Origin: a virus
Taxonomy: Duplodnaviria; Heunggongvirae; Uroviricota; Caudoviricetes
Reading direction: 5' to 3' (one strand)
Length of the DNA: 64,000 nucleotides
Virus record (IMG/VR): IMGVR_UViG_2695420523_000009
Location: 12,534-76,533 of that record
The notes beneath the pieces were generated by a model. It saw only the letters and a list, made by a program, of their open reading frames with translations, was not told the DNA's origin and did no database searches. A program made the translations under genes and the position numbers. Within the stretch, counting starts at the first letter, position 1. The number at the start of each line of letters is the position of its first letter. Below are positions 4,688 through 54,886 of the stretch, piece after piece.

Positions 4688-4702
4688 AAATAATTTGTTT
4701 TC
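4688..4702. promoter_or_regulatory. AACAA-N-TTGTT-type motif (half-site variant) upstream of CobT-like gene
   Basis: AAATAATTTGTTTTC, 18 bp upstream of the ATG at 4720. Confidence 0.35.
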
Positions 4703-4719
4703 ATAACAAAGGATTAGCC

Positions 4720-6828
4720 ATGTCTAAAAAACGTTCCATCAAAGAGGTTCAGGACTTCCGTGACAGTGTAAAACGAGTAGTCGCTCTCCTTTCAGGTAAA
4801 AACATCCCTGTTGCAGAACGAGGGGACGACGCTTATGTACGCTATAACGATGATGGAGAGCCAATTCTCGTAAACATCCCATCAATCCCGGATAACGCAA
4901 CACCGGCATTGATGAATGCTGTGCGCGGATTTCTCGATCATGAGGTTGCTCACATTTTGTTTACCGATATTCGTGTGTCCAACAAAATGAGAGAAAAAGG
5001 ACGCGTTCCTTCCTGGTCGCTATGGAATGCCTTAGAAGACGTGTTCATCGAGCGAAAAATGGGTCAGGTCTTTAACGGAACAAGACGTAATCTGATGGCA
5101 ACTCAGCGCCTTATAATCGAAAAAGTCTTTAAACCAAAGGCTTCAGAGGCTATTGCTTATTGTGGCAAAGATCAGCGCGCGCTTTTTCTAAACTTCTTTC
5201 TCTGTCCGGTTGTAAGAGCCTGGGATGGCCAAGCACCGTTCGTAGATTTCATGGATGAACATTGGCCTGTCATTGAGAAACCAATTTCATTATTAAAAGA
5301 ACATGGTATCGATGTGGCCGTGCGTAACATGTCTTGCACCGAGGATTGTGTAAAGGTGGCTGCGACCATAGCTAAGATCCTCAAAGACACTGAAAGTGAA
5401 AGCAAAGGTAAGGAGTCAGCTCCGGGAAAAACTTCCGATCCTTCAGACGCTGACCAGACGGATGCCTCTGGAGAAAACAATGAAGACAACGAAGATCATG
5501 AGACTCCCTCAGTGTTAGATAATTACAAATCTATCAAATCAGAATCACATAGTAAGTACAAACATGATAATAACGACAGTGATGATTCAGATAATTCTGA
5601 ATCATCAGAAACAATATTCGATGATACAGAAAATGATAAAGAGGTATCAGATTCTGATGCTTCTGATAACGCGGCGTCAGAATCATTAACCGCTGACCAC
5701 GAAAAAAGAAAAACGACAGAAGACGGCTCTTCAGATATCCCAACTCCGTCAAAAATGAGTCTGGAAGAGGCTTTAGAGGAGTTGGATAGCATGGAAGATG
5801 AAGTCGGAGGCATGACAGAAGATGCGCTATCCGAAACGATTAAAAGCGAGTTAACAGAAAGCTCGAAAAGCGAATACAGGCCATACAATCGCTCATACGA
5901 CTTCATCGGCTCGATTGATCAGGCAGAAGCCCATATCAAACGGCTTATTAAAACATTCTCCGATATTGATTTGGGAGGATATCCAATCAGCCGCTATCGC
6001 ATCGTTCCTGAAGGCAACCAGCTCTTCGACAAATATATTGAAAAGCATCTTTCGTCAGGTGTTTCGTCGACGCTGGCAAAAGACCTGGAGCGAGCAATAG
6101 CAAGCAGAAACAGAGTTCAGTTTATACCGGGCCAGCGTCGGGGGCGCATTCATGGTTCTAGTATCTACAGATTAGCAATGAATGATGCTCGCGTGTTTCG
6201 TAAAAAAGAAGAATCTAAAGCCGTTAACGCCTGTGTTCAACAAGTGATTGATTTATCAGGTTCAATGAGTGGTATAACGATTAAACTGGCTCTTGCAAGT
6301 GCATATACCATCGCCGATGCCCTTGATCGAATAAATGTTCCCAACATTATCACCGGCTTCACTACATTTGGTAGTCATATGGCGGCAGGAGAACTTAAGG
6401 CTGTCAAGTATGAGTTCTCTCGCTTTGAATCTTTAATGCTACCTATCATCAAAAATTGGAATGAAAAGGTAAATTCTCGCGAAGTTCGCTCACGTATGGG
6501 GTGTGTAGGCTACACATTCCCACTTCTTAATAACGTGGATGGTGAAAGCATAGCCAGCCTTGCATCGTTATTTTCCGGTCGCATGGAGGACAGGAAGATC
6601 ATGCTTGTTCTGAGTGATGGCGCGCCGTGGGCTGTTGGGAGAGGTTTTGACGCTCATTTGCGTTCAGTTGCGAAGCAAATTGAAACGCAGACTGATATTG
6701 ATTTGATGGCAATTGGCATCATGACTGACGCACCGGAGAGATTTTACTCAAATCATGCCCTGGTAACGAGCGTTGATAGTCTTGGTTCATCTGTAGTTAC
6801 TGAACTATCTCGTATCATTTTAAAGTGA
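4720..6828 (+). CDS. cobT: CobT-like von Willebrand factor A domain protein
   Basis: 702 aa; long acidic Asp/Glu/Ser linker in the middle; C-terminal vWA with MIDAS motif (VIDLSGSMSG); paired with a downstream CobS-like ATPase. Confidence 0.75.
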   Translation: MSKKRSIKEVQDFRDSVKRVVALLSGKNIPVAERGDDAYVRYNDDGEPILVNIPSIPDNATPALMNAVRGFLDHEVAHILFTDIRVSNKMREKGRVPSWSLWNALEDVFIERKMGQVFNGTRRNLMATQRLIIEKVFKPKASEAIAYCGKDQRALFLNFFLCPVVRAWDGQAPFVDFMDEHWPVIEKPISLLKEHGIDVAVRNMSCTEDCVKVAATIAKILKDTESESKGKESAPGKTSDPSDADQTDASGENNEDNEDHETPSVLDNYKSIKSESHSKYKHDNNDSDDSDNSESSETIFDDTENDKEVSDSDASDNAASESLTADHEKRKTTEDGSSDIPTPSKMSLEEALEELDSMEDEVGGMTEDALSETIKSELTESSKSEYRPYNRSYDFIGSIDQAEAHIKRLIKTFSDIDLGGYPISRYRIVPEGNQLFDKYIEKHLSSGVSSTLAKDLERAIASRNRVQFIPGQRRGRIHGSSIYRLAMNDARVFRKKEESKAVNACVQQVIDLSGSMSGITIKLALASAYTIADALDRINVPNIITGFTTFGSHMAAGELKAVKYEFSRFESLMLPIIKNWNEKVNSREVRSRMGCVGYTFPLLNNVDGESIASLASLFSGRMEDRKIMLVLSDGAPWAVGRGFDAHLRSVAKQIETQTDIDLMAIGIMTDAPERFYSNHALVTSVDSLGSSVVTELSRIILK

Positions 6829-6923
6829 ACAAAACAGCCTTAACGATAAGTAACCACTTACGATATATAATGATATATTTATATAAGAAGTTGAACGCTC
6901 ATTAGAGAACAAAGGAAAAACGC

Positions 6924-8159
6924 ATGACGACTACTGCACTGCAAAATGAAAAAAATCCTTCTGATTACCTTGTTTGCAAGTGGTGCGGCAAATCATTTCA
7001 CTATTTTAAGTCCCATGTAGCCAATGGTAATTGCGAGGGCATTCCTGAGTCAGTAAAAGATGCCGATCCTGACACCGTACTGAAAATGTACACAACGCAG
7101 TTTCCAGATGAACCAACGCTATCGAAAAAGGCACTTGATGCAATTCAAGCTAAACGTGCCGAGCAAAAAAGCGAAATGGCCAAATCTTCTGGCTTGACCA
7201 GTAGCCCTGGCTACACAGGCACAGTTGAGTACAAGACAGATCTGGTCGCAGCTCACGAACTGCTAAACGTAACGGTGGAAGAACTCGGAACAAAACGTGG
7301 GACGCCGCTCATGGTTAGCGTCAACGTCAATACGCCGTATCCAGAGTTCGTTCCCGAAGTGAAGAAAGGCTACGTATATGGCGACTTCGAACTGATCAAA
7401 GATATTTTCATGATGCTTGAACTTGGCATACCTGGCTATTTGTGGGGTCATGCAGGAACAGGCAAATCGTCATTGCCTACACAGCTATGTGCTTTGCTCA
7501 ATCGTCCGTTGATCCGTGCCCAACATACAGCATCAATGGAAGAGGCACATGTTACGGGGCAAATTCTGGCGCGTGATGGCTCTACGTATTTCGAACCTGG
7601 CTTGCTTGCGCTCGCAATGAAGCATGGCTGGGTTTACCTCGCGGATGAATACGACTTTGCGTTTCCACAAATTCTTGGCGTGTATCAGCCAGTGCTGGAA
7701 GGTGAAGCGTTGGTCATCAAAGAGGCAACTCCAGAATGGCGTCGCATTACTCCGCATGAACGGTTTGCTTTCATTGGCACTGGCAACACGAACGGATCTG
7801 GTGATGAAACCGGCTTGTACCAGGGTACAAACATCCAGAACGCCGCGAACTTTTCGCGTTTTGGCATCGTTTCGAATGTGAAATACATGAGCAAAGACGC
7901 AGAGATCAACATGTTGACAAATGCAGGCATCGTGGATGAATACGCTGAAAAGATGGTTAAGTTTGCCGGTATCGTTCGCGATGGATACGAAGAACACCTC
8001 ATTAGTCAGCCAATTGGCCCTCGTGAACTTTTGTTGTCGGCCAAGATTGGAATGATGCGAGGCGACTTTGTGACAGGTATTGAGCGTTCTTTCATTAACA
8101 AACTCCCTTCAGCTTCTGCACAAGCGGCTCGTGAAGTTGTTCAAAAAATATTTGGTTAA
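6924..8159 (+). CDS. cobS: CobS-like AAA+ ATPase (MoxR family)
   Basis: Walker A GHAGTGKSS, Walker B VYLADEYD, N-terminal Cys-rich stretch (CKWCGKSFHYFKSH); RBS AAAGGAAAAACGCATG. Confidence 0.8.
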   Translation: MTTTALQNEKNPSDYLVCKWCGKSFHYFKSHVANGNCEGIPESVKDADPDTVLKMYTTQFPDEPTLSKKALDAIQAKRAEQKSEMAKSSGLTSSPGYTGTVEYKTDLVAAHELLNVTVEELGTKRGTPLMVSVNVNTPYPEFVPEVKKGYVYGDFELIKDIFMMLELGIPGYLWGHAGTGKSSLPTQLCALLNRPLIRAQHTASMEEAHVTGQILARDGSTYFEPGLLALAMKHGWVYLADEYDFAFPQILGVYQPVLEGEALVIKEATPEWRRITPHERFAFIGTGNTNGSGDETGLYQGTNIQNAANFSRFGIVSNVKYMSKDAEINMLTNAGIVDEYAEKMVKFAGIVRDGYEEHLISQPIGPRELLLSAKIGMMRGDFVTGIERSFINKLPSASAQAAREVVQKIFG

Positions 8160-8339
8160 TCGTGCGTAAAGGATGTTTCGGCTCTCTTATCGCTGCTTCT
8201 GAAACTGGTAAGGCTTGTCTGGTGTGTCCAGACAAGCCCGATTGTCACCAATCAGCAAAAGAAGTTGCGATTTCGATGCATGGGAAGTTCGTAGGCTTCC
8301 CCAATGACAAAATCAAAAAAACCAGAAATGTAAAAACAC

Positions 8340-11858: not shown

Positions 11859-11865
11859 TCCCATA

Positions 11866-11892
11866 AACATGGCCTCTATGGCCATGTTTTCT
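11866..11892 (+). terminator. rho-independent terminator
   Basis: AACATGGCC-tctat-GGCCATGTT hairpin followed by TT run, just after the dnaE stop. Confidence 0.7.
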
Positions 11893-11983
11893 CTTATCCC
11901 CTCATATCCCCTATCCTCGAACTCCTTGCCTTATCATCACAATGATATAATCAATATAAGATGATAAGTAAAAAGGAAAGCAT

Positions 11984-12415: not shown

Positions 12416-12532
12416 TTTTTGATAGATAATAAGTAAGTACTGATCTATTATTTAACAGCTCGAAAGAGCCACGAATGAACGAAAGCCCAACGCGCATAGC
12501 GCCATCGGCCAAATCACAACAAGGAGAAACAC

Positions 12533-13561: not shown

Positions 13562-13578
13562 TCCCATTACGTGACCAG

Positions 13579-13606: not shown

Positions 13607-13621
13607 GGAAGGAATGTACCG

Positions 13622-14832: not shown

Positions 14833-14834
14833 TC

Positions 14835-17076: not shown

Positions 17077-17095
17077 ATCGAAATTATCTTATTAA

Positions 17096-17111
17096 GAAAA
17101 CAATTTGTTTA
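17096..17111. promoter_or_regulatory. GAAAACAA-N-TTGTTT palindromic motif
   Basis: GAAAACAATTTGTTTA, 15 bp upstream of the ATG at 17127. Confidence 0.45.
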
Positions 17112-17126
17112 AAAGGATAAGAAAAC

Positions 17127-17552
17127 ATGACAGTTATTAAGAAACTCTACGATGCCGCAAACGTGGCTCTGGATGTTATTGATGATGAAGTAGCAAAAGG
17201 CTTTCCTGAACCTGATTGGGCGCATCAGCTACGAAACGCTATCGCAGAAATGACCCCACCAGATCCAACCCCCGACGAGACAGACTGGCAGCGATTCATC
17301 CGTATGTACGCTCAGGAAATAGGTCCAACGCCAACGGCAGAGCAGGCAATGCTGCTGAAATACTTCAAAGAGGCGGGAGAGGATTTACCAATTGATGACT
17401 CAGCATATTGGTTCCACTGCGCATGGCGTAAGTATGACGTGATATTCACACAAGGCATGGGAAGCAAAGATATGGTTGTGTGGCATCTACTCCATATAGA
17501 CACAGCCGTTGACAGAGTTATTGAACAGTTTTTCCCTAAACAAGAAGATTGA
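17127..17552 (+). CDS. hypothetical protein
   Basis: 141 aa ORF, RBS AAGGATAAGAAAAC. Confidence 0.55.
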   Translation: MTVIKKLYDAANVALDVIDDEVAKGFPEPDWAHQLRNAIAEMTPPDPTPDETDWQRFIRMYAQEIGPTPTAEQAMLLKYFKEAGEDLPIDDSAYWFHCAWRKYDVIFTQGMGSKDMVVWHLLHIDTAVDRVIEQFFPKQED

Positions 17553-26383: not shown

Positions 26384-26401
26384 GATAGGTAGGTACTTAT
26401 C
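26384..26401. promoter_or_regulatory. intergenic palindrome GATAGGTA-gg-TACTTATC
   Basis: 8-bp arms with one mismatch, upstream of nrdA. Confidence 0.4.
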
Positions 26402-28800: not shown

Positions 28801-28826
28801 TTGTAAGCCTTGTTTAAACACATAAG

Positions 28827-30014: not shown

Positions 30015-30091
30015 ACCGATACAAAGCATTATGTGGCCTGGCAACGCTGGGCCACAATGGATCACAAGAATTAAGAAGGAGCAAAACTAGC

Positions 30092-30961
30092 ATGAACTTT
30101 ACCAAACTGACTGACCACCTGAAACTTGCCACCGATCGACTCATTGGATTTAAGCCAGAACCATATGAGTTGCATGAAGGCCATGGTGTAGCCACTGAAA
30201 GTATTTACAAGATGGTCGATCAGTTTCATGAACTCTTCCAGCATCCGAGACGCGTTATGCCGACACCAGAGCTGCTTCGTCTCCGTGCAAGCCTGATTCA
30301 TGAAGAAGCTGTAGTGGAAGGTATTCCAGCCGCAATGAATGGGGATATTGAGCAACTGCTGGATGCAATGGCCGACTTTTTATACGTTGGTGTTGGTACG
30401 ATGGTCGCCATCAAAGGTGGTATTTCTACCGGCATGACTTATTACACGCAGGAACAGAGCATTGATCGCTTTATGCAGACAATTTTTGTGCCTGGTAACA
30501 CTGTTTTCGATGATATGGCAATGCCATTTCAGGAAGCTCGTGAGGCGTCATGTATGCTCGAAGAGCTGGCAGATAAACTTGAGAAGAAGACTGTTAAGGA
30601 TTCTGAGCTGATTCAGGAACTGCGCCGTGTAATGAACAAAATCTATGTGGCGTGCATGATGACTTATCGACTGGCTGATTTTCTCGGTATCAATGTCGTC
30701 GAGCTGGTTGGCGAAATTCATCGGTCCAACATGACAAAATTATGGCCTGCAGATGCCGAAGAGCGTCGCCATGCTGTGGCCAACTGCAAATACGACTCTT
30801 CTGACCTGGGATTTCGCCATGCTGATGGCACCGATAAGATGATCGGTTTTCGAATTTCCGATGGAAAGATTCTGAAGTCTCCAACCTATAGTGATGTCGA
30901 TTTATCCTCCTTTGTTGAGCAAGCTAAAGCCTCAGCAATGTACGGAATGATCAAAAAATAA
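30092..30961 (+). CDS. putative all-alpha NTP pyrophosphohydrolase (MazG-like, tandem domains)
   Basis: Two EExxE...D-type repeats (IHEEAVVEGI ... DAMADFLYV; EEAREASCMLEELADKL ... RLADFLGI); function inferred, not certain. Confidence 0.45.
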   Translation: MNFTKLTDHLKLATDRLIGFKPEPYELHEGHGVATESIYKMVDQFHELFQHPRRVMPTPELLRLRASLIHEEAVVEGIPAAMNGDIEQLLDAMADFLYVGVGTMVAIKGGISTGMTYYTQEQSIDRFMQTIFVPGNTVFDDMAMPFQEAREASCMLEELADKLEKKTVKDSELIQELRRVMNKIYVACMMTYRLADFLGINVVELVGEIHRSNMTKLWPADAEERRHAVANCKYDSSDLGFRHADGTDKMIGFRISDGKILKSPTYSDVDLSSFVEQAKASAMYGMIKK

Positions 30962-35937: not shown

Positions 35938-35957
35938 TAGGTATATACTTACCTATC
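35938..35957. promoter_or_regulatory. palindrome ATAGGTA-tatact-TACCTAT
   Basis: Perfect 7-bp inverted arms around a TATACT (-10-like) hexamer, 10 bp upstream of the ATG at 35968. Confidence 0.45.
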
Positions 35958-38151: not shown

Positions 38152-38252
38152 TAAGTAAGTGTTTACCTATCATTTTAAATCATGTATCTTATCGGCGTCA
38201 GGATGACAATGTGTCGGTAAGACACAGTTCCAGGATGGAACGAGAAAGGCGG

Positions 38253-39017: not shown

Positions 39018-39073
39018 CGGCTGTTAGTGCATATGCATTGACCATCTTTGCGTAAGCAATTTATGAAACTATA

Positions 39074-39089
39074 AAACAACTTGTTTTGA
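39074..39089. promoter_or_regulatory. AAAACAA-N-TTGTTTT palindromic motif
   Basis: AAAACAACTTGTTTTG, 22 bp upstream of the ATG at 39111. Confidence 0.5.
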
Positions 39090-39724: not shown

Positions 39725-39800
39725 TTGACCGAAATAGAGAGTTTGCACCTTTACGTTTAGCTTGCTCCCCTTATATGCCACATCACAATAAAGCCAATAA

Positions 39801-40439: not shown

Positions 40440-40541
40440 ACGCCTTAAATCTGCTGTAACGCCTATGAATGCAGCTTTTATGCCTTTTCAAGTTTGCGAT
40501 AATTACACCAATCAGAAAACAAATTATTTAATGGTGTAATT

Positions 40542-42227
40542 ATGAATACAGCCCTTTCCATCATCGACGATGCCAGCTCAAACACGGCTATCGACTATCG
40601 TCAGGAAATGAATGTCATCCACGAAATCGTGGCCGAGTGCGAGAAAGAGATCGCCTTCATGTATCAGGTACACGACTTCGTTTATGGCGACGAACGCCAC
40701 AACATGATTAATCGCCTGCTGAGACTAAACCATCGACCAGATGAAGATCGCTCGCGTTTAAATCGAGGTTGGTTGGATAAAGTCGATCTGGAATGGGTGA
40801 AACAGAATATTTGGGCCGAGTACTGGAGGAAGGTCACGGACATGACTAACGTTTTGCTGATCATGCCAGCTTCCCGTCGAGATGAGTGGCGCGAGCAGTT
40901 TATAGAGGGCAAACAGGAAGTCATCAAAACTGACAGAACCGGCTACCAGATGAAGGTTAAAGAGTTCGTTGGTGTACCGGAGTTCAAAGCAGAAACGGTC
41001 ATACCCACGATGCTTAATTTACTGAATGACAGGCACAAATATCTCTCTGAGCGCGTGTATGGCTTGTTTAAGGCGCTGAGTCCTGCGCACAAGACAAATA
41101 AGACAAACGGTTTCAGCGAGCGGCTGATAATCGCTGACTGCATTTCTGATTTCTGGCGGGACAGCGTTAGCGTGAACTATCGCAAAGAGGACTACATCGA
41201 CGATCTACGTGTCTTGCTTCATTTCTTCGCGCACAAAGAATTTATTACCATCAACCGCACTGCTGAGGTGCTATCAGCTGCGTATAGGGCAAACGACTGC
41301 CAGACCGGTGACTGGATGAACGTCGATGGAAATCTGATGCGCGTGAAGATGTTCAAGAACGGCAACGTTCACTTTGAAATACATCCTGACGTGGCCTGGA
41401 AGTTGAATGAGGTGCTGGCTTACAGTATGCCTGCTGCAATCCCCGCGCCATGCCGAACTGCGCCAAAAACACGGGCACCAAAGCAGTTCGGGTTAATCCA
41501 GAAGACGATCTCCGTGCCGGTTCGCACTGCGCTTCGTGACGGGCGATTGAGCAAAGACAAAGGCGTATGGTACTTCTCTGATTCAGCTCTCCAGAAGTCG
41601 CAGGTGGAAGAGCTTGAGCGCACACTGAGCTTCATTGGCGGCGTGCAGGAGAAAAAGCACTGGCAGTTCCCGTATAACATCGGCCATACGCTAAATACGA
41701 TTGTGGCTACCGGTTTAATACCGGATACAAAATCACACCAGTTCTACCCTACCCCACGCTTGATTGCTGAGTACGTTGCAAGAGCCACTGAATTGAAGCC
41801 TGGTGAGAAGCTGTTGGAGCCTCAAGCCGGACGTGGGGATCTTCTGGCCTATATAAACGCCGATCTGGAAGATGTTACCTGCATAGAAATCGCACCTCTC
41901 TTCGCTGATATCCTGCGTGGAAAAGGGTATACGAACACGATTTGCTGCGACTTCATAAAGTGGTCTGAGGACAACGCAGGTTATCAGTTCGACAAAATCG
42001 TTATGAACCCGCCGTACTCGCTTGGTCGTCATAGAGAGCACACGCTGGCTGCGCTGGGGCATCTGAAAGTCGGCGGGCGTCTTGTAGCAGTATTGCCAGG
42101 CACTGCGCCAATACTGGACTGGATGACGATGGATAATTACGTTTATGCCAGAGGGAAGTCGTTTACCAACGAGTTTGAAGACACAGGGATCACAGTCAGC
42201 GTATACGTTTTCAAACGCGTTAAATGA
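40542..42227 (+). CDS. DNA methyltransferase (N6-adenine type) with about 380-aa N-terminal domain of unknown function
   Basis: C-terminal FYPTP, LEPQAGRGD (SAM-binding motif I-like) and IVMNPPYS (motif IV). Confidence 0.7.
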   Translation: MNTALSIIDDASSNTAIDYRQEMNVIHEIVAECEKEIAFMYQVHDFVYGDERHNMINRLLRLNHRPDEDRSRLNRGWLDKVDLEWVKQNIWAEYWRKVTDMTNVLLIMPASRRDEWREQFIEGKQEVIKTDRTGYQMKVKEFVGVPEFKAETVIPTMLNLLNDRHKYLSERVYGLFKALSPAHKTNKTNGFSERLIIADCISDFWRDSVSVNYRKEDYIDDLRVLLHFFAHKEFITINRTAEVLSAAYRANDCQTGDWMNVDGNLMRVKMFKNGNVHFEIHPDVAWKLNEVLAYSMPAAIPAPCRTAPKTRAPKQFGLIQKTISVPVRTALRDGRLSKDKGVWYFSDSALQKSQVEELERTLSFIGGVQEKKHWQFPYNIGHTLNTIVATGLIPDTKSHQFYPTPRLIAEYVARATELKPGEKLLEPQAGRGDLLAYINADLEDVTCIEIAPLFADILRGKGYTNTICCDFIKWSEDNAGYQFDKIVMNPPYSLGRHREHTLAALGHLKVGGRLVAVLPGTAPILDWMTMDNYVYARGKSFTNEFEDTGITVSVYVFKRVK

Positions 42228-42247
42228 TAGGTAAATACTTACTTAAT
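42227..42247. promoter_or_regulatory. intergenic palindrome (TAGGTA/TACTTA family)
   Basis: GATAGGTAAATACTTACTTAA. Confidence 0.35.
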
Positions 42248-43373: not shown

Positions 43374-43511
43374 ACGCTACAAATCCTTCGGCATGAATAA
43401 ATAAAGGCCATAAGTTGTGGCCTTAAATAAATTGTTTTCTACCTTTTCTTATTTGTGAAAATAAACCAGCACTTGGTAGTGCTTATGTAACAGCAAAGAA
43501 GAGAAAAACAC

Positions 43512-45658: not shown

Positions 45659-45678
45659 TACTGTATGCATATACAGTA
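45659..45678 (+). promoter_or_regulatory. LexA (SOS) box
   Basis: TACTGTATGCATATACAGTA matches the CTGT-N8-ACAG consensus; 17 bp upstream of the UmuD'-like start. Confidence 0.8.
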
Positions 45679-46084: not shown

Positions 46085-46096
46085 GAGAACTGTTTA

Positions 46097-46121
46097 GGTG
46101 GTGCATTGCACCACCTTTTTA
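46097..46121 (+). terminator. rho-independent terminator
   Basis: GGTGGTGCATTGCACCACC hairpin followed by TTTTTA, abutting the mrp stop codon. Confidence 0.65.
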
Positions 46122-47222: not shown

Positions 47223-47379
47223 CCCGTCTCCTTTATTTTAATTTGCGCAATTGTCGCCTTGTAGTGTACTCCAGCTGCGACATTTAATCATTTATGAGAA
47301 ATGCTGTTATCACATGGCAGACATAAGGCCATTTTGTTACTATCAAGCCCCTTTTCACTACAAAGAAGTAATGCCTACT

Positions 47380-49413
47380 ATGACCCAAGTCGCGAAGAAA
47401 ATTCTGGTGACGTGCGCGCTGCCGTACGCTAACGGCTCAATCCACCTCGGCCATATGCTGGAGCACATCCAGGCTGATGTCTGGGTTCGTTACCAGCGAA
47501 TGCGCGGCCACGAGGTTAATTTCATCTGTGCCGACGATGCCCACGGTACGCCGATCATGCTGAAAGCACAGCAACTTGGTATCACACCGGAGCAGATGAT
47601 TGGCGAAATGAGTCAGGAACACCAGACTGATTTCGCAGGCTTTAACATCAGCTATGACAACTATCACTCGACGCACAGCGAAGAGAACCGTCAGTTGTCT
47701 GAGCTTATCTATACTCGCCTGAAAGAGAACGGTTTTATTAAAAATCGCACTATCTCTCAGTTGTACGACCCGGAAAAAGGCATGTTCCTGCCGGATCGTT
47801 TTGTGAAAGGCACCTGCCCGAAATGTAAAGCGCCAGATCAATACGGCGATAACTGTGAAGTTTGCGGCGCGACCTACAGCCCGACTGAACTGATCGAGCC
47901 GAAATCGGTGGTTTCTGGTGCTACCCCGGTAATGCGTGATTCTGAACACTTCTTCTTTGATCTGCCCTCTTTCAGCGAAATGTTGCAGGCATGGACCCGC
48001 AGCGGTGCGTTGCAGGAGCAGGTGGCAAACAAAATGCAGGAGTGGTTTGAATCTGGTCTGCAACAGTGGGATATCTCCCGCGACGCACCTTACTTCGGTT
48101 TTGAAATTCCGAACGCGCCGGGCAAATATTTCTACGTCTGGCTGGACGCACCGATTGGCTACATGGGTTCCTTCAAGAATCTGTGCGACAAACGCGGCGA
48201 CACTACCAGCTTCGACGAATACTGGAAGAAAGACTCCACCGCCGAGCTGTACCACTTCATCGGTAAAGATATCGTTTACTTCCACAGCCTGTTCTGGCCT
48301 GCCATGCTGGAAGGCAGCAACTTCCGCAAGCCGACCAACCTGTTTGTTCATGGCTATGTGACGGTGAACGGCGCGAAGATGTCTAAGTCTCGCGGTACCT
48401 TTATTAAAGCCAGCACCTGGCTGAATCATTTTGACGCTGACAGCCTGCGTTACTACTACACTGCGAAACTCTCTTCGCGCATTGATGATATCGATCTCAA
48501 CCTGGAGGATTTCGTTCAGCGCGTGAATGCCGATATCGTGAACAAAGTGGTGAATCTGGCGTCCCGTAACGCGGGCTTTATCAATAAGCGTTTTGACGGT
48601 GTGCTGGCAGGCGAACTGGCTGACCCGCAACTGTACAAAACCTTTACTGATGCCGCTGAAGTGATTGGTGAAGCATGGGAAAGCCGCGAATTTGGTAAAG
48701 CGATTCGTGAAATCATGGCGCTGGCTGATCTGGCTAACCGCTATGTCGATGAACAGGCTCCGTGGGTGGTGGCGAAGCAGGAAGGACGCGATGCCGATCT
48801 GCAGGCGATTTGCTCTATGGGCATTAACCTGTTCCGCGTGCTGATGACGTACCTGAAACCGGTACTGCCGAAACTGACTGAACGTGCAGAAGCATTCCTG
48901 AATACAGAACTGACCTGGGATGGTATCCAGCAACCGCTGCTGGGCCATAAAGTGAATCCGTTCAAGGCACTGTATAACCGTATCGATATGAAACAGGTGG
49001 AAGCACTGGTGGAAGCATCCAAAGAAGAAGTGAAAGCCACAGCTGCACCGGTAACTGGCCCACTGGCTGACGACCCGATTCAGGAAACCATCACCTTTGA
49101 CGACTTCGCCAAAGTTGACCTGCGTGTGGCGCTGATTGAAAACGCGGAGTTTGTCGAAGGTTCTGACAAACTGCTGCGCCTGACGCTGGATCTCGGTGGT
49201 GAAAAGCGTAATGTCTTCTCAGGCATCCGTTCCGCTTATCCAGATCCACAGGCACTGATTGGTCGTCACACCATTATGGTGGCTAACCTGGCTCCGCGTA
49301 AAATGCGCTTCGGTATCTCTGAAGGCATGGTGATGGCTGCTGGCCCCGGCGGGAAAGATATCTTCCTGTTAAGCCCGGATGCCGGTGCTAAACCAGGCCA
49401 TCAGGTTAAGTAA
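47380..49413 (+). CDS. metG: methionyl-tRNA synthetase
   Basis: From [26 protein letters not shown] (HIGH motif) through KMSKS and the C-terminal tRNA-binding domain, collinear and near-identical to E. coli MetG (677 aa); start set to the internal ATG 47380. Confidence 0.97.
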
Positions 49414-49432
49414 TTAAACAACCTCTCTTCGC

Positions 49433-49461
49433 AATGCCCGGCAACACGCTGGGCATTTTCA
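49433..49461 (+). terminator. rho-independent terminator (metG)
   Basis: AATGCCC ... GGGCATT stem followed by TTTC. Confidence 0.6.
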
Positions 49462-49496
49462 TATAGACACAATCCCTCCTGATTTACACAAGCCCT

Positions 49497-49512
49497 AAAA
49501 CAATTTGTTTTC
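49497..49512. promoter_or_regulatory. AAAACAA-N-TTGTTTTC palindromic motif (copy 1)
   Basis: AAAACAATTTGTTTTC, near-perfect palindrome. Confidence 0.5.
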
Positions 49513-49546
49513 TACCTTTTGTTGATTGAGATAATAAGCCACATAA

Positions 49547-49563
49547 GAAAACAAATTGTTTTG
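49547..49563. promoter_or_regulatory. GAAAACAA-N-TTGTTTT palindromic motif (copy 2)
   Basis: GAAAACAAATTGTTTTG, 12 bp upstream of the ATG at 49575. Confidence 0.5.
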
Positions 49564-49574
49564 GAGTGGTTGAA

Positions 49575-49874
49575 ATGTTGAACATTACCCAAGCCTACCA
49601 GGTGGCATTGATCAGTTCATCTCATACATCAGAGGAAGATGCTCGCCGATTCATGATCGCAAGCAATGAGCTGGATTGGGTTTCACAAATTGACGGCGGT
49701 TGTATTGTCCACGCCGGGTTACAGGATGATGTCTGGAAAGAGGACTTGCGTCGATATGGTATATCCGAAGGCGCGATTGCTAACATTCAGAAAGTACTTG
49801 ATGTAGGCTTTGACTCTGTACATTTTGATTGTGGTGCACCGGTCGTTGAAGGGCTAGAGTGCTGGCAATGGTAA
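49575..49874 (+). CDS. hypothetical protein
   Basis: 99 aa from ATG 49575 (RBS GGAGTGG); ORF-track start 49566 is a GTG inside the RBS. Confidence 0.5.
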   Translation: MLNITQAYQVALISSSHTSEEDARRFMIASNELDWVSQIDGGCIVHAGLQDDVWKEDLRRYGISEGAIANIQKVLDVGFDSVHFDCGAPVVEGLECWQW

Positions 49875-49910
49875 TCCGGCAATCGCTTCATACTAGACAA
49901 CGGAGAATTT

Positions 49911-50096
49911 ATGCTTAAAGAAGACTCATATCTACTAAAGGCGCTTGAAATGCGTGGCGTTGAACCTACAGTGAAAAACGCTCACGATATCTACCTTCAG
50001 TTTTCACCGGAGCTGAAACGGTTCATAAATCAATACGGGGTTAATGACTCAAGTGTTAAAGCAATGATAGATGATGAATTAGACCATCTCATCTAA
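49911..50096 (+). CDS. hypothetical protein
   Basis: 61 aa, RBS GGAG. Confidence 0.4.
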   Translation: MLKEDSYLLKALEMRGVEPTVKNAHDIYLQFSPELKRFINQYGVNDSSVKAMIDDELDHLI

Positions 50097-50248
50097 TCGT
50101 TTCCTATGATAATGGTTTTCACTTTGAGATTGTTATTTTTCATAGCTAAAGCTGATGTTTGTGGAAGGTGAATTGATAAACGGATGCGTATTTAGGTTAT
50201 ACAAGTGAGAAAATTGATAATATATAAACGCGATTTTTATGTGATGGA

Positions 50249-50818
50249 ATGGATGTGATGGAAACCCAGAACCAACAAACAAAACCTCTGAATAACATTT
50301 ATGCGTGGATTCTAGCGTTCATGCCTTTCTTCTTTGGAGTATCGCCGGAAGAGTATACCAATTACGCTATTATAATTGGGGGTGTAACTACCATCGGTTT
50401 GTTAGTAGCTGACAGAATGGCTCTATCGGAGTCTGGCTGTGAACCACCTTCAATTCTATGGGGGGTATTCCTCCTGCCTGTCTATCTCTGGAAGCGCGCG
50501 ACTATTACAAAAGGCAGCAGAGTGCCATTTATCATAATCGTTGCGTCGCTGGCTTGGATTATCTTCATCGGCATCCCACACAAGGACGAGGTTGCTCTTG
50601 AAGAAGCAGCCTGCCCTCTCGTGACAACTATTCTGAAAGAGAATAACGGTTCGACTGCACCAAAATGTATGAAGGTGACAATAGAGGACAAGGTGACGGA
50701 TAAGTTCTATAGAGCAACGGCTACACTAGACAATGGTAATGACATTAACATTACTCTGGAACTTACCGGCGACAGGAACTTCTACGTCCGTGTTCCAAAT
50801 GTTTATCTGAACAACTAA
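50249..50818 (+). CDS. hypothetical membrane protein
   Basis: 189 aa with 3-4 hydrophobic segments; preceded by an AT-rich spacer. Confidence 0.5.
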   Translation: MDVMETQNQQTKPLNNIYAWILAFMPFFFGVSPEEYTNYAIIIGGVTTIGLLVADRMALSESGCEPPSILWGVFLLPVYLWKRATITKGSRVPFIIIVASLAWIIFIGIPHKDEVALEEAACPLVTTILKENNGSTAPKCMKVTIEDKVTDKFYRATATLDNGNDINITLELTGDRNFYVRVPNVYLNN

Positions 50819-50939
50819 CGGTTGCAACTCATTGATAATGGCGGTCACAATTTGATTCTTTTCTATAAGAATCCGTTGATCGCCACTACTCCCTTTCCAT
50901 ACCCGCAATCACATCCTTAAATATCAATAAGTTATAGTT

Positions 50940-51700
50940 TTTATACAATCAAGAAAACAACTGAATAACAGATCAACGAAACATCAACGCTTTCACCCGA
51001 TTTGGTCTAAAAAATTGACGTTTTCACACATCACTTCTTATACCCGTAATTCTACGCAGCAGACAGCGCCACAGCGTCCAATTTTCACCACAGACGACCC
51101 AACACACTACCAACAAAAACACACGCTCAAAATCGCTCCCGTTGCGTTACACAACCATATAAACAACTTATTTTCAGGCATAACAAAACAACTAAATAAC
51201 ACACATGCCATTCCCAAAAACAACCAACCTCTTTATGGCAGGCTACCGAAAAGACCCACCTCTTCTCCCCAGGCTACCGGACAGCCAACCTAACTTTCAC
51301 AGGCAATCCGAAAACATTCATACGCGCAATACCCACGACACGCCATTACCCAAACAGCGAAGAAACACCAGAATCACTGAAACCCCAACGAAGCCTGTAA
51401 CCACAAGGATTCTCTCAATCCCAAAAGACACGAAACATAACAATCACGGGAAACGCCATTACCCAATACACGAATAACTACAAAAGCCCTTCACGCACTC
51501 CAGACAAACAACTCAAACACAACAACGAAAGGAATCGCCCACCTGCCATTACTCCATACATGGAGAAGAACAATCACCAAAACGACGAGAACACCCCATA
51601 GAAGAACCACCGCAAAACGAACGAAACCACATACACCGACAGAGAAACAACACACCCAATTCACCAACAGAAATAGTCGCCGTATAGAACATTCTGGAAG
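50940..51700 (+). other. A+C-rich, G/T-poor non-coding tract (strand-asymmetric)
   Basis: Top strand dominated by A and C with few G (e.g. CAACACACTACCAACAAAAACACACGC); the ORFs called here are composition artefacts with no RBS. Confidence 0.6.
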
Positions 51701-51875
51701 GAGTGAGCATTAACGCCTATAGAGAGGTTGAGACAGAAAAACACAACATGTATAGCGAAGAAGCCAGGTATGTATAAGTGGGGAGGGAAGGAGGGGTGTC
51801 GCCTCCTTTTTCGTATTTATTCAACTCCTGATTTTATCCCCCCGTAACACCCCTACGGTCAGTCTTCGGTCCATA

Positions 51876-52009
51876 CAGGGAAAAGGTTGCATCCCGCTAC
51901 AGAAACGGCTGGGTTGCCTTCGGGGAACGGCTGGGGATTTTCAGGGAAACGGTCGAGTTGCCTGTGTGGATTTCGGGAAAAGGCTCGATGCCGGTTCAGG
52001 AACGGCGGC
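51876..52009. repeat. direct-repeat array, GGGAAACGG family, about 22-bp periodicity (array 1)
   Basis: Six copies (CAGGGAAAAGG, CAGAAACGGCTGG, CGGGGAACGGCTGG, CAGGGAAACGG, TCGGGAAAAGG, CAGGAACGG) at 21-22 bp spacing (one 31 bp); TGTGGAT DnaA-box-like core at about 51965. Confidence 0.6.
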
Positions 52010-52343
52010 GTACCGGTATAGCGAGAGGGAGAGTTGCGGCTACCCACCTGTAATGTGCGGGAAGAAGAGAGGCGCTCACGTGCAGGCGAACTTACTTACC
52101 GCTGGATTCCCTCTGAATGCCCAACTACAGCGTAATTGTGCCAGACAGCCAGCGGGTCACAATCGATTTCAGTAGGTTTTCGGGGAGAGGATTATTCTGC
52201 CTACCAGCCACTTTCGGCCACTAAATCAGAATAATGTAAAAAGTGTACTCGGTACTGAACCTGAAAACTCACTGCCAAAACCACATTCACCGGAATAAAA
52301 TCCTTTTCCGCCTTTGTCTTATTGCGATAATAACACCAACAAG

Positions 52344-52359
52344 TAAACAACATGTTTAG
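52344..52359. promoter_or_regulatory. AAACAA-N-TGTTTA palindromic motif
   Basis: TAAACAACATGTTTAG, upstream of the ATG at 52390. Confidence 0.45.
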
Positions 52360-52389
52360 ACGTTATATAAACGAAGTGAGGATGAAGAG

Positions 52390-52608
52390 ATGATTAAGAT
52401 GCCTGTGACGGTTGAGGTGTGGGGCGTGGATTCCCTGGCTGAGTGTCTGGATGCAGTGGGGCCGGAGTTGTACCGCAAGTTGTGGTCGTTCGTCCCGGCA
52501 GAAGGGGAATCGCCCAAAGGGAAGGATATCTGGCACCTGCTGAGTGAAGATGAAAAGCGAGAGCTGGTGGACGCGGTACACAGCGAGTTCCCGGGCGACG
52601 AAGATTAA
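52390..52608 (+). CDS. hypothetical protein
   Basis: 72 aa, RBS GAGGATGAAGAG. Confidence 0.5.
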   Translation: MIKMPVTVEVWGVDSLAECLDAVGPELYRKLWSFVPAEGESPKGKDIWHLLSEDEKRELVDAVHSEFPGDED

Positions 52609-52617
52609 GAGTGAGGC

Positions 52618-52640
52618 CACCAGCACGGTGGCTTTTGTCG
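52618..52640 (+). terminator. rho-independent terminator
   Basis: GCCACCAGCACGGTGGC hairpin followed by TTTTGT. Confidence 0.7.
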
Positions 52641-52682
52641 CTATTAACCTCCGGGCAGCGCAGCACCGTAACGATATACTTT

Positions 52683-52740
52683 GTGGCCGTTTTCTTACTG
52701 GTATTATTTACGCAATTCAGAAAACAACATGTTTAAGGAT
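52683..52740. repeat. about 57-bp promoter-region cassette, copy 1 of 2
   Basis: GTGGCCGTTTTCTTACTGGTATTATTTACGCAATTCAGAAAACAACATGTTTAAGGA; near-identical copy at 53167..53222. Confidence 0.7.
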
Positions 52741-52746
52741 TGCGTT

Positions 52747-53076
52747 ATGTTTGCAAATATCGACATCAACCAAATCAAGAAAATGACTCAAAAAGAGTTT
52801 GACCAGTTTTATGAGTTAGAAGGTTGGTCTTCCACGCTGATCAATTCGCGCTGGGTGCTTGAGCTGATGACTCGTGATGATGCTCCTGCTTTGATTATTT
52901 GCGACCTGGGTGAAGATGCTGACTTTATGGATATGAGCGAATTTTGTGTGGACACATACAACCGCAGCCAGAAGTACTACTTCACATGCGATAGCGAGAA
53001 TGACGTTATTTCTAAGGTCTATCTTCACCTCGTCCAGCATTGGGACGTTCAGGAGTTTCTTGAAGTATTCGAGTAA
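52747..53076 (+). CDS. hypothetical protein
   Basis: 109 aa from ATG 52747 (RBS AAGGA 8 nt upstream). Confidence 0.5.
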   Translation: MFANIDINQIKKMTQKEFDQFYELEGWSSTLINSRWVLELMTRDDAPALIICDLGEDADFMDMSEFCVDTYNRSQKYYFTCDSENDVISKVYLHLVQHWDVQEFLEVFE

Positions 53077-53086
53077 CCCCAACCAA

Positions 53087-53110
53087 AGCCAGCAATGCTG
53101 GCTTAATTTC
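53087..53110 (+). terminator. rho-independent terminator
   Basis: AGCCAGCAATGCTGGCT palindrome followed by TAATTT. Confidence 0.6.
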
Positions 53111-53166
53111 TCTATAGCCGCAGGGAAGAACCTGCATATCGCTCATGCACCTGATCAATATGCTTT

Positions 53167-53222
53167 GTAGCCGTTTTCTTACTGGTATTATTTACGCCAT
53201 TGAGAAAACAAGTTGTTTACGG
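53167..53222. repeat. about 57-bp promoter-region cassette, copy 2 of 2
   Basis: GTAGCCGTTTTCTTACTGGTATTATTTACGCCATTGAGAAAACAAGTTGTTTACGGA. Confidence 0.7.
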
Positions 53223-53229
53223 AGTTGTA

Positions 53230-53541
53230 ATGAAAAAATCATTGGTTCTTGGTCTGGACAAAGACCAGAAGAGAAAAGAGAAGCCTGCGCTGGTTGCTCA
53301 ATTAACTTTGCTGGACATCGTTGCCAATGGGACCTCTATTCGTCTGTTCCGTGAAACAGCGGTGTCTTTCGATAAAAACACCTTTACTCGTTATGTAATG
53401 AATGTTCGTCGCCAGCGTGGAAAAGGCTGGGTGGCATTTCAAAGAATGTGGCCGGAACATCAGCTCGAACTGGCTTTGATGGAAGTTAACCGCGTGGCCC
53501 AGCAAGAGATTCAGAGAGCATCAGTGATGGCAATAGCCTGA
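53230..53541 (+). CDS. hypothetical protein
   Basis: 103 aa from ATG 53230 (RBS ACGGAG). Confidence 0.5.
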   Translation: MKKSLVLGLDKDQKRKEKPALVAQLTLLDIVANGTSIRLFRETAVSFDKNTFTRYVMNVRRQRGKGWVAFQRMWPEHQLELALMEVNRVAQQEIQRASVMAIA

Positions 53542-53575
53542 TAATGTGCAAGTGGCAATTAGTCGACAGTACGAC

Positions 53576-53604
53576 AGCCCCGCCATCCTTACGGGGCTTT
53601 TTTG
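53576..53604 (+). terminator. rho-independent terminator
   Basis: AGCCCCG ... CGGGGCT stem followed by TTTTTTG. Confidence 0.75.
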
Positions 53605-53608
53605 TATT

Positions 53609-53624
53609 GTAAGTACATACTTAC
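53609..53624. promoter_or_regulatory. palindrome GTAAGTA-ca-TACTTAC
   Basis: Perfect 7-bp inverted arms, 2-bp spacer; same architecture as 15953..15968. Confidence 0.45.
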
Positions 53625-53667
53625 GATCATAGAATATAAAAATAATCAAAACACTACGGAGAGTGAA

Positions 53668-54063
53668 ATGACCGTTAAACGCGAAAAACTGACAGTTGAT
53701 GTTTACTATGCCTCTGAAACCGCCGAAGGTAAGAATGTGGCAAAAATTACCGTTGTTACGTACAACACCGAAACTGGTGCCGAAGTCCAGGCCAGTACGA
53801 TCGTGCGTAAAGGTGATGCCTCCGGCGGCGAGTACGCGACTCAATACCAGTCCATTCTCGATGCAACTGACCCGCTGCTGCTGAAAATCGAGAACTACTT
53901 CCGCCAGGTTGATGAAGAGGTGTTTGAAACCATGATGAATATGGTTAACACCGTATTCGCCTCCAGCCTGAATACCAACACTACCTGGATTGGTCAGTAC
54001 GGCCTGCGCATTACCTCTGGCATTCCTGCCGACACCTTAATCCCTGAAAGCGTATTCGCTTAA
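53668..54063 (+). CDS. hypothetical protein
   Basis: 131 aa from ATG 53668 (RBS GGAGAG). Confidence 0.5.
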   Translation: MTVKREKLTVDVYYASETAEGKNVAKITVVTYNTETGAEVQASTIVRKGDASGGEYATQYQSILDATDPLLLKIENYFRQVDEEVFETMMNMVNTVFASSLNTNTTWIGQYGLRITSGIPADTLIPESVFA

Positions 54064-54072
54064 TCCTCTTTA

Positions 54073-54100
54073 AATGGCGCGTAAACCGCGCCATTTTATT
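54073..54100 (+). terminator. rho-independent terminator
   Basis: AATGGCGCG-taaac-CGCGCCATT followed by TTATT. Confidence 0.7.
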
Positions 54101-54107
54101 AAGCCCG

Positions 54108-54123
54108 ATAACAATTTGTTTTC
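54108..54123. promoter_or_regulatory. AACAA-N-TTGTTTTC palindromic motif
   Basis: ATAACAATTTGTTTTC. Confidence 0.5.
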
Positions 54124-54180
54124 TGCCTTATCTGATTTGTGAAAATGATTTCACTGAAGCAACTTAATAAGGAAACCATC

Positions 54181-54555
54181 ATGGGACTTGATATCTATAT
54201 CGAGACACAGCCTAAAAACGATCTGAATAACGAGGCATCCAGAAAGCAGGTTGCTTACTTCCGTAAGTTCAATGCGCTCGTTGGGTGGATGGAGCGCAAC
54301 GTAGGTGAAGTCGAAAATTGTGAGCTTTTAGAATTAACGATGAATGACATTTGTTTTCTGAAGGCTCATTTGATGCACATAAACGAAAGTAATTGCGAAG
54401 AGTACTTGCCTACCCGGGAAGGTTTTTTCTTCGGCAGTCAGGAGTACGATGAAGGTTACTGGCATGATGTGGGGCAGTTGAAAGAGCTTGTGGAAGACCT
54501 GATTAAGAACCACGACTTTCACAATAACAGACTGACCTTCTGCGCCTGGTGGTAA
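54181..54555 (+). CDS. hypothetical protein
   Basis: 124 aa from ATG 54181 (RBS AAGGAAACC). Confidence 0.5.
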   Translation: MGLDIYIETQPKNDLNNEASRKQVAYFRKFNALVGWMERNVGEVENCELLELTMNDICFLKAHLMHINESNCEEYLPTREGFFFGSQEYDEGYWHDVGQLKELVEDLIKNHDFHNNRLTFCAWW

Positions 54556-54557
54556 AT

Positions 54558-54701
54558 ATGGGCGATTTCAAGAAACGCCTGAAGGAAAGAGCCGAGATGG
54601 TCAGAAAGCAAAACGCCTCTTCTGTCATCAGATACGCAAGGCAGTTTAGTCGCAACAACAAATCAGTTGAGGAAAAGATCCTTAGCGTAATCGTGCGATA
54701 A
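54558..54701 (+). CDS. hypothetical small basic protein
   Basis: 47 aa ORF (below ORF-track cutoff) starting 2 nt after the upstream stop. Confidence 0.3.
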   Translation: MGDFKKRLKERAEMVRKQNASSVIRYARQFSRNNKSVEEKILSVIVR

Positions 54702-54870
54702 TTATTAAGGCCATCAGCATTGGTGGCCTTAAATGACCATCTTGTTTCCCGCAGGCTAAAAACACCAACCTCTTACCTCCAGGCAACCGACAAACCCACC
54801 TGTTCCCGTCCGGCTACCGCAACTTTCCACTTTGACGCCTTATTCGTACAACGATAATTAACGCCAACAA

Positions 54871-54886
54871 GAAAACAATTTGTTAT
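54871..54886. promoter_or_regulatory. GAAAACAA-N-TTGTT palindromic motif
   Basis: GAAAACAATTTGTTAT, 19 bp upstream of the ATG at 54906. Confidence 0.5.

Follow-up and report, generated by a model that had tools for sequence, protein, structure and literature searches.

A dispersed 17-bp palindrome at predicted extended -10 promoters of an SSU5/pHCM2-type phage-plasmid, a candidate operator

The window analysed here is a stretch of 64,000 nucleotides (nt) of the IMG/VR virus record IMGVR_UViG_2695420523_000009 (positions 12,534 to 76,533), which, judging from its sequence matches, covers the two thirds of an SSU5/pHCM2-type phage-plasmid that are non-structural, with the Escherichia coli phage Cyrano as its nearest relative. 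A 17-bp palindrome, GAAAACAAnTTGTTTTC, recurs across this window ahead of + strand genes, at near-invariant distances from -10-like hexamers. We favour the reading that the palindrome is the operator of one element-encoded regulator, probably a repressive one; taken jointly with the regulon and the candidate binders described below, this is the best explanation we have, and we hold it with about even confidence. The palindrome regulon has apparently not been described before: we found no published description, and an SSU5-like phage-plasmid is the subject of a 2026 bioRxiv preprint that may hold an earlier account.

Enrichment, promoter geometry and conservation of the palindrome

Allowing up to three mismatches, GAAAACAAnTTGTTTTC matches the window 16 times, compared to a mean of 0.78 and a maximum of 3 in 100 dinucleotide shuffles, so the enrichment over a shuffled background that had been named as a check when the motif was first noticed is borne out. 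The non-coding DNA alone (10.1 kb, 40% GC) holds 11 matches against 0.165 expected (200 Markov-1 simulations). The core AACAAnTTGTT, with at most one mismatch, gives 17 matches against 2.5 expected and adds the site at 52344, which has four mismatches to the full 17-mer. We count 15 copies upstream of + strand genes (Table 1), in agreement with the at least 12 copies of the original prediction, every one of whose site coordinates is right within 2 nt. The two cassettes described there as about 90% identical, 52683-52740 and 53167-53222, have 6 differences over ~59 positions, which is indeed ~90% identity. Terminator hairpins had been placed often just upstream of the motif; what stands of this is that terminator-like hairpins are visible directly upstream of 17096, 43423 and 54107. 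Two further matches, at 57779 and 59017, sit within minus-strand open reading frames (ORFs) and are doubtful. Pfam and PHROG searches with the small proteins encoded behind the motif gave no function.

The 15 copies fall into two types, which the original prediction did not tell apart. At the 12 downstream-type sites, the -10-like hexamer begins 25-26 nt ahead of the palindrome centre in most cases (overall range -26 to -21), and at 28826, 39072 and 51159 there is no convincing -10. The hexamer is usually GATAAT or TATTAT, often with TGn ahead of it (TGcGATAAT, TGaGATAAT, TGgTATTAT); TG stands two bases ahead of the hexamer at five of nine downstream-type sites in the window. At the three upstream-type sites, CT(a/g)CCTT and then TGnGA(t/a)AAT come after the palindrome, and the hexamer begins exactly 26 nt past the centre at every such site in four genomes; reading the sequence by eye, we find an extended -10 at 3/3 of those in the window. 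Both types can occur on one promoter with their centres 51 bp apart, as at 49496/49547 and at promoters in SSU5, Klebsiella and pMT1. The symmetric core AAACAAnTTGTTT is the part that the two types have in common, the left GA being kept in the downstream type and the right TC in the upstream type.

With the start predicted 7 nt past the hexamer, a downstream-type palindrome would span about +6 to +22. The predicted palindrome centres are then at about +14 for the downstream type and about -38, the place of the -35 element, for the upstream type. Relative to the genes, the centres of the 12 downstream-type sites lie 18-39 nt and their 3' ends 10-31 nt ahead of the ATG, while the upstream-type sites 43423, 49496 and 54107 lie ~66-81 nt ahead of the start codon (54107 by the corrected ATG 54181). 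Because the centre-to-hexamer offset is near-invariant and the centre-to-ATG distance ranges over 18-39 nt, the element belongs to the promoter and not to the ribosome-binding site (RBS) or translation start. The fixed position relative to RBS and start codon that was proposed at first is therefore not seen, the reference point being the -10 (offset -25/-26 or exactly +26). The predicted promoters have the marks of a sigma-70 extended -10 promoter, with TG at -15/-14 and a hexamer with A at position 2 and T at position 6. A dedicated sigma factor, which had also been suggested, is unlikely since the palindrome is accompanied by extended -10 elements of the ordinary sigma-70 kind.

The palindrome is found throughout the relatives of this element. 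Cyrano has 20 matches, two of them ahead of terS and one each ahead of parA and the helicase gene, and 0 of the 20 fall inside its 28-kb structural operon. SSU5 has 21 matches and the divergent Klebsiella plasmid p2 (~69% identical in nrdAB) has 19; a 21-kb Cronobacter locus holds two and a 41-kb Yersinia pMT1 locus seven. The palindrome is thus kept across lineages, two of them from Klebsiella, that share only ~69-80% nucleotide identity. At the terS promoter there are two copies in Cyrano, SSU5 and pMT1 and one in Klebsiella p2. Orthologous alignment shows turnover at individual promoters: the copy at the DUF4942 promoter is lost in Cyrano, and the copy before nrdB is missing from the Klebsiella plasmid. 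Such gain and loss resembles that of transcription-factor sites and supports the operator reading. In 34.5 kb of a distant Moellerella relative, hardly any copy is seen apart from a AAGAAAACAA half-site before parA. An exact-motif scan of IMG/VR gave, outside SSU5-like contigs, mostly single, unrelated matches of the kind expected by chance.

The element itself is widespread. An 8-kb piece of the window is 94-97% identical to Escherichia phages PhiR41_1, CMS-2020a and Cyrano, and an 801-bp piece, the query across the nrdA-nrdB junction, is 100% identical to E. coli plasmid NZ_CP024271.1; the junction search matched 737 plasmid records from Klebsiella, Escherichia, Enterobacter, Salmonella, Citrobacter, Yersinia and Cronobacter. 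Window coordinates equal Cyrano coordinates minus ~38,416.

The terS upstream region has a layout of its own (Cyrano L001 55-135; SSU5 54-133; pMT1 L009 32815-32895). A pair of palindromes, spaced 25 bp, comes first, then a GC-rich hairpin with TGTGTGTTTT, and terS starts only past these. This promoter-terminator-gene arrangement hints at antitermination control of the late operon.

Table 1. Palindrome copies in the window and the genes considered as encoding their binder (window coordinates unless stated otherwise).
Feature	Position	Strand	Details
Palindrome GTAAATAATTTGTTTTC	4686-4702	+	Downstream type; -10-like TACATT 4670-4675; CobT-like gene, ATG 4720
Palindrome GAAAACAATTTGTTTAA	17096-17112	+	Downstream type; after terminator-like hairpin; -10-like AATTAT 17082-17087; ATG 17127
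Palindrome GATAACAACTTGTTTAA	28826-28842	+	Ahead of nrdB, ATG 28872; TTTAAACAC before palindrome, no clear -10; orthologous alignment
Palindrome TAAAACAACTTGTTTTG	39072-39088	+	Ahead of TciA-like gene, ATG 39111; no convincing -10
Palindrome GAAAACAACTTGTTTAA	39801-39817	+	-10-like CACAAT 39784-39789; gene ATG 39834
Palindrome GAAAACAAATTATTTAA	40515-40531	+	Extended -10 TGcGATAAT (hexamer 40498-40503); DUF4942 gene, ATG 40542
Palindrome TTAAATAAATTGTTTTC	43423-43439	+	Upstream type, predicted centre ~-38; extended -10 TGtGAAAAT (hexamer 43457-43462); ATG 43512
Double-operator promoter (putative)	49496-49563	+	Palindromes 49496-49512 (predicted ~-38) and 49547-49563 (predicted ~+14), centres 51 bp apart; between them extended -10 TGaGATAAT (hexamer 49530-49535); gene ATG 49575
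Palindrome ATAAACAACTTATTTTC	51159-51175	+	Gene ATG 51205; no clear -10
Palindrome GTAAACAACATGTTTAG	52343-52359	+	4 mismatches; extended -10 TGcGATAAT (hexamer 52326-52331); ATG 52390
Palindrome GAAAACAACATGTTTAA	52720-52736	+	First cassette copy (52683-52740); TGgTATTAT (hexamer 52702-52707); ATG 52747
Palindrome GAAAACAAGTTGTTTAC	53204-53220	+	Second cassette copy (53167-53222); TGgTATTAT (hexamer 53186-53191); ATG 53230
Palindrome GATAACAATTTGTTTTC	54107-54123	+	Upstream type; after terminator-like hairpin; TGtGAAAAT (hexamer 54141-54146); ATG 54181
Palindrome GAAAACAATTTGTTATT	54871-54887	+	TTGACG then GATAAT (hexamer 54853-54858); gene ATG 54906
Doubtful copy CAAAACAACTATTTTTC	57779-57795		In 3' end of minus-strand FljA-like gene; upstream-type-like flank, no -10
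Doubtful copy	59017-59033		3 mismatches; over codons 4-9 of minus-strand 92-aa gene
Post-parA protein	Cyrano 29975-30334 / SSU5_034		Outside window; 119 aa, directly after short ParA
88-aa winged-helix-like protein	63596-63862	+	Cyrano CYRAN_123, SSU5_130; last gene before terS promoter
XRE-type putative prophage repressor	3772-4158	-	Judged unlikely to bind palindrome
FljA-family protein (PF03614)	57746-58270	-	Probable start Met27 of ORF ending 58348
Conserved 92-aa protein	58766-59044	-	N-terminus ribbon-helix-helix-like by eye (TYCQVALSDKANDKL...MSKAEVINTILEQL)

A candidate operator weighed against other readings

According to our favoured reading, the palindrome would be a double-stranded DNA operator within sigma-70-type promoters that use an extended -10 and have no good -35. 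A single element-encoded protein would occupy the sites as a dimer or a dimer of dimers, would bridge them where a promoter has both, and would hold down ~15 transcription units in the window and ~20 per whole genome, either by occluding RNA polymerase or by blocking promoter escape. The regulon would consist of replication, nucleotide-metabolism and many small genes and, in the relatives, also of the terS and parA operons. The fixed -10 distances, the conservation and the site turnover support the proposal that a dimeric regulator encoded by the element has its operator here and controls a regulon through it. The narrower proposal of a regulon of early and replication genes has to be widened, as the late terS and the parA promoters are also included in the relatives.

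The + strand carries nearly all genes of the window, and the minus-strand genes are those expressed in the Cyrano lysogen (LF82; published table S1 of PMC9928086, from which all our expression values come). For the genes behind the motif, expression in this lysogen is at background or close to it. Extended -10 promoters are normally active unaided, and +14 and -38 are classic operator positions. We favour repression because the lysogen-silent genes have promoters that should fire on their own, because the sites take operator positions, and because sites five helical turns apart suit cooperative binding. It is from these patterns that we infer protein binding, repression and the identity of the binder. 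A double-stranded DNA site is also the economical reading, given the weak hairpins, the lack of an Rfam match and the upstream-type copies that lie outside their own transcript.

Some of our results weigh against a repressive operator. When 49000-55500 was scanned with a simple sigma-70 -35/-10 and terminator search, these promoters were not called, which is explained by their having no good -35. The -10 assignments themselves rest on consensus matches, and the parA operon is 5-9 times above lysogen background despite its operator.

In LF82 inside macrophages, the genes behind the palindrome rise by just ~0.3-3 log2 units, except for the parA operon, which rises by ~4.5.

The same sites could instead serve activation, with a lytic-phase factor such as the protein of 88 amino acids (aa) in Table 1 switching on promoters that have no -35, as Lpa does in P1. 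The palindrome promoters have no canonical -35, and the upstream-type site takes the place of that region. The 88-aa protein is among the best-conserved in the element, its gene is the last before the terS promoter, which bears palindromes in relatives, and this gene and the target genes are all silent in the lysogen. P1 also provides the precedent, with 11 late promoters whose shared inverted repeat is bound by Lpa (PMC10695390). However, most copies are centred at about +14, past the predicted start, which is classic for a repressor and unusual for an activator, and extended -10 promoters normally need no activator. Given further that no Lpa homologue was found in the sequences searched and that the P1 -22 boxes (AAGTTACTT, ATGTGACTT) are unrelated in sequence and position, we consider activation unlikely.

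The position of 12/15 copies in the predicted leader, 10-31 nt ahead of the ATG, would also suit an RNA element, in which a FljA-family protein binds the A-rich and U-rich halves in the 5' leader and blocks translation, as FljA does on fliC mRNA. The window and all relatives examined encode a PF03614 protein, modelled as two Hfq-like domains, its gene is expressed in the lysogen (log2 ~7-8 in several conditions), and FljA-like proteins are reported to prevent fliC mRNA translation (PMC2652032). Some leaders have flanks that pair over the RBS: at 40506-40544, 49538-49577, 52711-52749 and 17087-17129, bases before the palindrome (CACCA, GCCAC, CGCAATTC and TCTTATT, respectively) pair with the RBS region after it and leave the palindrome at the tip of a hairpin of -3 to -10 kcal/mol, while other leaders are without such pairing. 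Several observations nevertheless make an RNA site improbable. Upstream-type copies precede the -10 and so lie outside the transcript (3/15 in the window; 12 across four genomes), and the spacing follows the -10 rather than the RBS. Overall, the hairpins are weak and inconsistent (-0.6 to -10 kcal/mol, z-scores +0.7 to -3.6), and Rfam 15 has no match in the window at the gathering threshold. Moreover, the Klebsiella lineage has the motif unchanged but a FljA-like protein of just 36% identity, and no similar sequence occurs in the E. coli fliC leader.

That elements of Escherichia, Salmonella, Klebsiella, Cronobacter and Yersinia all have the motif in invariant form, while most candidate element regulators diverge, would be expected if the element exploited the site of a conserved Enterobacterales transcription factor or nucleoid protein. 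The same could be said of pMT1, which keeps its sites although no Yersinia record is among the plasmids with a homologue of the protein encoded after parA. We judge such a host factor quite improbable, as ~20 sites per 108 kb at fixed promoter positions suit a dedicated regulator better and the motif is largely missing from 34.5 kb of the Moellerella relative. We know of no E. coli factor with the palindrome as its site; the nearest site known to us is the KdgR box GAAACAnTGTTTC, in which the half-site spacing differs by 2 bp. Finally, the dyad symmetry would be incidental, with no binding site at all, if a promoter-plus-leader cassette had spread by duplication. Two copies are ~90% identical over ~59 bp, and flanks are conserved too, for example ACACCAACAA before the palindrome and CTACCTTTT after it. 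Yet the palindrome is found with three promoter contexts and at two positions, what the two types share is precisely its symmetric core, and the palindrome persists in lineages with diverged flanks, which leaves this explanation very little probability.

Candidate binding proteins

If the palindrome is a repressive operator, the protein encoded directly after parA is our first, tentative candidate for its binder. It follows a short Walker-type ParA (in Cyrano 222 aa, with matches to AAA_31, MipZ and CbiA and no N-terminal DNA-binding domain), which likewise lies outside the window. The parA promoter carries the palindrome in four lineages and the half-site in Moellerella; in Cyrano, SSU5 and Klebsiella p2 a TATATC or TATAAG hexamer stands 8 nt ahead of the palindrome, which also precedes parA in locus L106. 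The post-parA protein is 90-100% identical in ~736/797 plasmids. Its N-terminus MGDLAKR is invariant, as are IKSRTMS and FTRSDVIRAAI on either side of a variable helix; it has a basic tail and is expressed in the lysogen at ~9 times background. As binder, it would act like a centromere-binding repressor of the omega or ParG type.

Against this candidate, its sequence pattern is compatible with a ribbon-helix-helix (RHH) fold, but no support for this fold was obtained from Pfam, PDB or hhalign. pMT1 keeps sites in its 41-kb stretch, and 0 Yersinia records are among the 797 plasmids with a post-parA homologue. SSU5 has the protein yet grows lytically. Each site has two half-sites and there are at most two palindromes, 25 or 51 bp apart, with no array of at least four repeats. 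In a covariation test, the palindrome was unchanged in the lineage with a K-to-Q change in the conserved strand of the protein, which gives no covariation between protein and site.

It is tempting to speculate, though we think it rather unlikely, that the post-parA protein is both partition adaptor and global repressor, the ~20 palindromes being dispersed centromeres as well as operators. Element copy number would then set repressor occupancy: were replication to run away, following induction or infection, the autoregulated protein would be titrated by the sites, which would release the lytic regulon.

The 88-aa protein, one of the regulators suggested in the original prediction, stays viable as binder on a weak full-length match to LexA_DNA_bind (E 0.07), and is our second, rather doubtful choice, not far behind the first. 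It is 78% identical in the divergent Klebsiella lineage, ranking 7th of 47 proteins. Its gene is at background level in the lysogen, a point against it as lysogenic repressor; if it is the binder, it more likely acts in the lytic cycle. The other winged-helix protein suggested, at 56499-57149, gave no winged-helix evidence. The sequence past the 88-aa gene, ~63897-64000 (GGTGATGCTGCCAACTTACTGATTTAGTGTATGATGG...), looks to us like an end of IS1, an assumption on our part. If so, an insertion sequence parts the 88-aa gene from the terS promoter here, unlike in Cyrano and NZ_CP024271.1.

Other proteins were considered and set aside. The XRE repressor, which had also been put forward, is unlikely as binder: its own control region (4159-4408) has 0 palindrome copies and instead a different palindrome, GGTAAGTGCTTACC, at 4190 with related half-sites, and its gene is missing from SSU5, which has 21 matches. 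The FljA-family protein (Pfam PF03614, E 2.5e-84) is modelled as two tandem Hfq-like domains (predicted local distance difference test, pLDDT, 78), with Foldseek matches to Hfq, and is probably an RNA binder; the tandem Hfq/Sm-like model fits the reported post-transcriptional action of FljA. We rejected it as a DNA binder because the model has no helix-turn-helix (HTH) and the protein is among the most divergent of the element, as opposed to the invariant site. The conserved 92-aa protein is ~12-fold above background in the lysogen and is not favoured, given a poor model (pLDDT 60), no profile support and a putative DNA-reading strand that differs in the Klebsiella lineage. Two ParB_N proteins (60671-62037) were excluded as silent in the lysogen.

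The integrase gene, the XRE gene and a 70-aa gene divergent from it (window 2674-4621) are present in Cyrano and missing from SSU5, which may be a repressor-less derivative, judging from its gene content. These three genes are 57-68% identical in representative full-length plasmid matches, and ~960 records match the XRE protein, some of them far more distant.

Neighbouring control signals and comparison with known systems

A second dispersed palindrome, (a)TAGGTAAGTnCTTACCTA(t), occurs in the window at 26388-26401, 35940-35953, 38154-38167, 42230-42243, ~60646-60663 and 4190-4203, in Cyrano (L001) at 22451 and 26660, and in SSU5 at 2034, 5474, 27477, 67778, 77654, 78712, 79907 and 84181. It directly abuts a -10-like hexamer, as in TATAAT-AAGTAAGTGATTACTTA before the parB operon, and is found in early and late regions; as a 14-mer it reaches just 8 matches against 2.5 expected. 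In the divergent Klebsiella plasmid it reads TAAGTAAGTATTTACTTA, with both arms changed symmetrically, which suggests a dimeric DNA binder with shifted specificity. The XRE repressor is a candidate for that binder, as a perfect core adjoins its gene. Together, the two palindromes suggest at least two dispersed operator sets, comparable to P1.

Good LexA-box matches stand just before the integrase gene (CTGTTTACTTATACAG, 2630-2645) and just before a UmuD-like gene (CTGTATGCATATACAG, 45661-45676), and both genes rise strongly in macrophage-grown LF82. The integrase gene (+ strand, with the LexA box ahead) and the XRE gene (minus strand) are convergent within 2674-4158 and overlap by 6 nt, so SOS-driven integrase transcription would run antisense through the repressor gene, a possible induction route. 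The 70-aa gene (4409-4621, + strand), in the position of Cro, rises ~90-fold in LF82 inside macrophages, from log2 4.3 to 10.8.

Clinical Enterobacteriaceae commonly harbour phage-plasmids of the SSU5/pHCM2 type, and some phage-plasmids, SSU5-group members included, carry resistance genes according to one report (PMC9600943). There is essentially no work on how these elements remain quiescent in the plasmid state or switch to growth as phages. A 17-bp site that marks ~20 promoters gives a direct handle on the circuit between lysis and plasmid state, as it predicts transcription units and can serve as bait for the regulator. Should the dual role of the post-parA protein be true, plasmid maintenance would be coupled to the lysis decision in ~800 sequenced plasmids, a family that includes the Salmonella Typhi pHCM2 type; Yersinia pestis pMT1 keeps the sites, with no homologue of the protein in Yersinia records.

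Like the operators of lambdoid CI and Cro, the palindrome is a 17-bp 8-1-8 dyad that overlaps promoter elements. Lambdoid operators, however, cluster beside the repressor gene, whereas the sites here are dispersed, with none in the XRE control region. Dispersal is what the element has in common with P1, also a plasmid prophage whose scattered transcription units each have a short shared promoter site, the C1 operators and the Lpa repeats. In the P1 record, C1 operators overlap sigma-70 promoters and late promoters consist of a -10 and the shared repeat. The C1 operators are asymmetric 17-mers. The Lpa boxes are 9 bp long, lie near -22 and are unrelated in sequence, unlike the true palindrome with predicted centres at +14 or -38 that we describe. 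Searching with tblastn, we found no match to Lpa better than E 0.7 in the window, Cyrano or SSU5; neither Lpa nor C1 has a homologue in Cyrano, SSU5, pMT1 or the partial loci from Klebsiella and Cronobacter, the window itself being searched with Lpa only. With no Lpa or C1 homologue in the sequences searched and unrelated late-promoter boxes, we rule out membership in the P1 system.

The parA locus resembles those of omega from pSM19035 and ParG from TP228, in which a short ParA is followed by a small centromere-binding protein that represses operons (PMC9499535; PMC3130281); here a 222-aa ParA is followed by the conserved 119-aa protein, and the palindrome is at the parA promoter. Omega is an RHH ParB whose sites overlap promoters, with pairs of inverted repeats bound by dimers of dimers, and it needs at least four contiguous repeats for partition activity (PMC9499535). 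In contrast to the omega arrays of 7-10 heptads at three promoters, with six parS sites, this element has single 8-1-8 palindromes at ~20 promoters, mostly of phage lytic genes, and both the RHH fold and the partition role of the candidate are putative.

The KorB operators (OB) of RK2 are dispersed 13-bp palindromes with a central base, some of them just upstream of the -35 (~-39/-40), and KorB is an HTH ParB, a partition-family protein that exerts global repression. The present system differs from KorB in that its ParB_N proteins are silent in the lysogen and most of its sites lie past the predicted start. The SopB sites of the phage-plasmid N15 are placed near phage control regions. These single palindromic centromere sites, IR1-4, are scattered and bound by the partition protein (PMC7205306). 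N15 has four such sites and an HTH ParB, whereas the element described here has ~20, each at a fixed promoter position.

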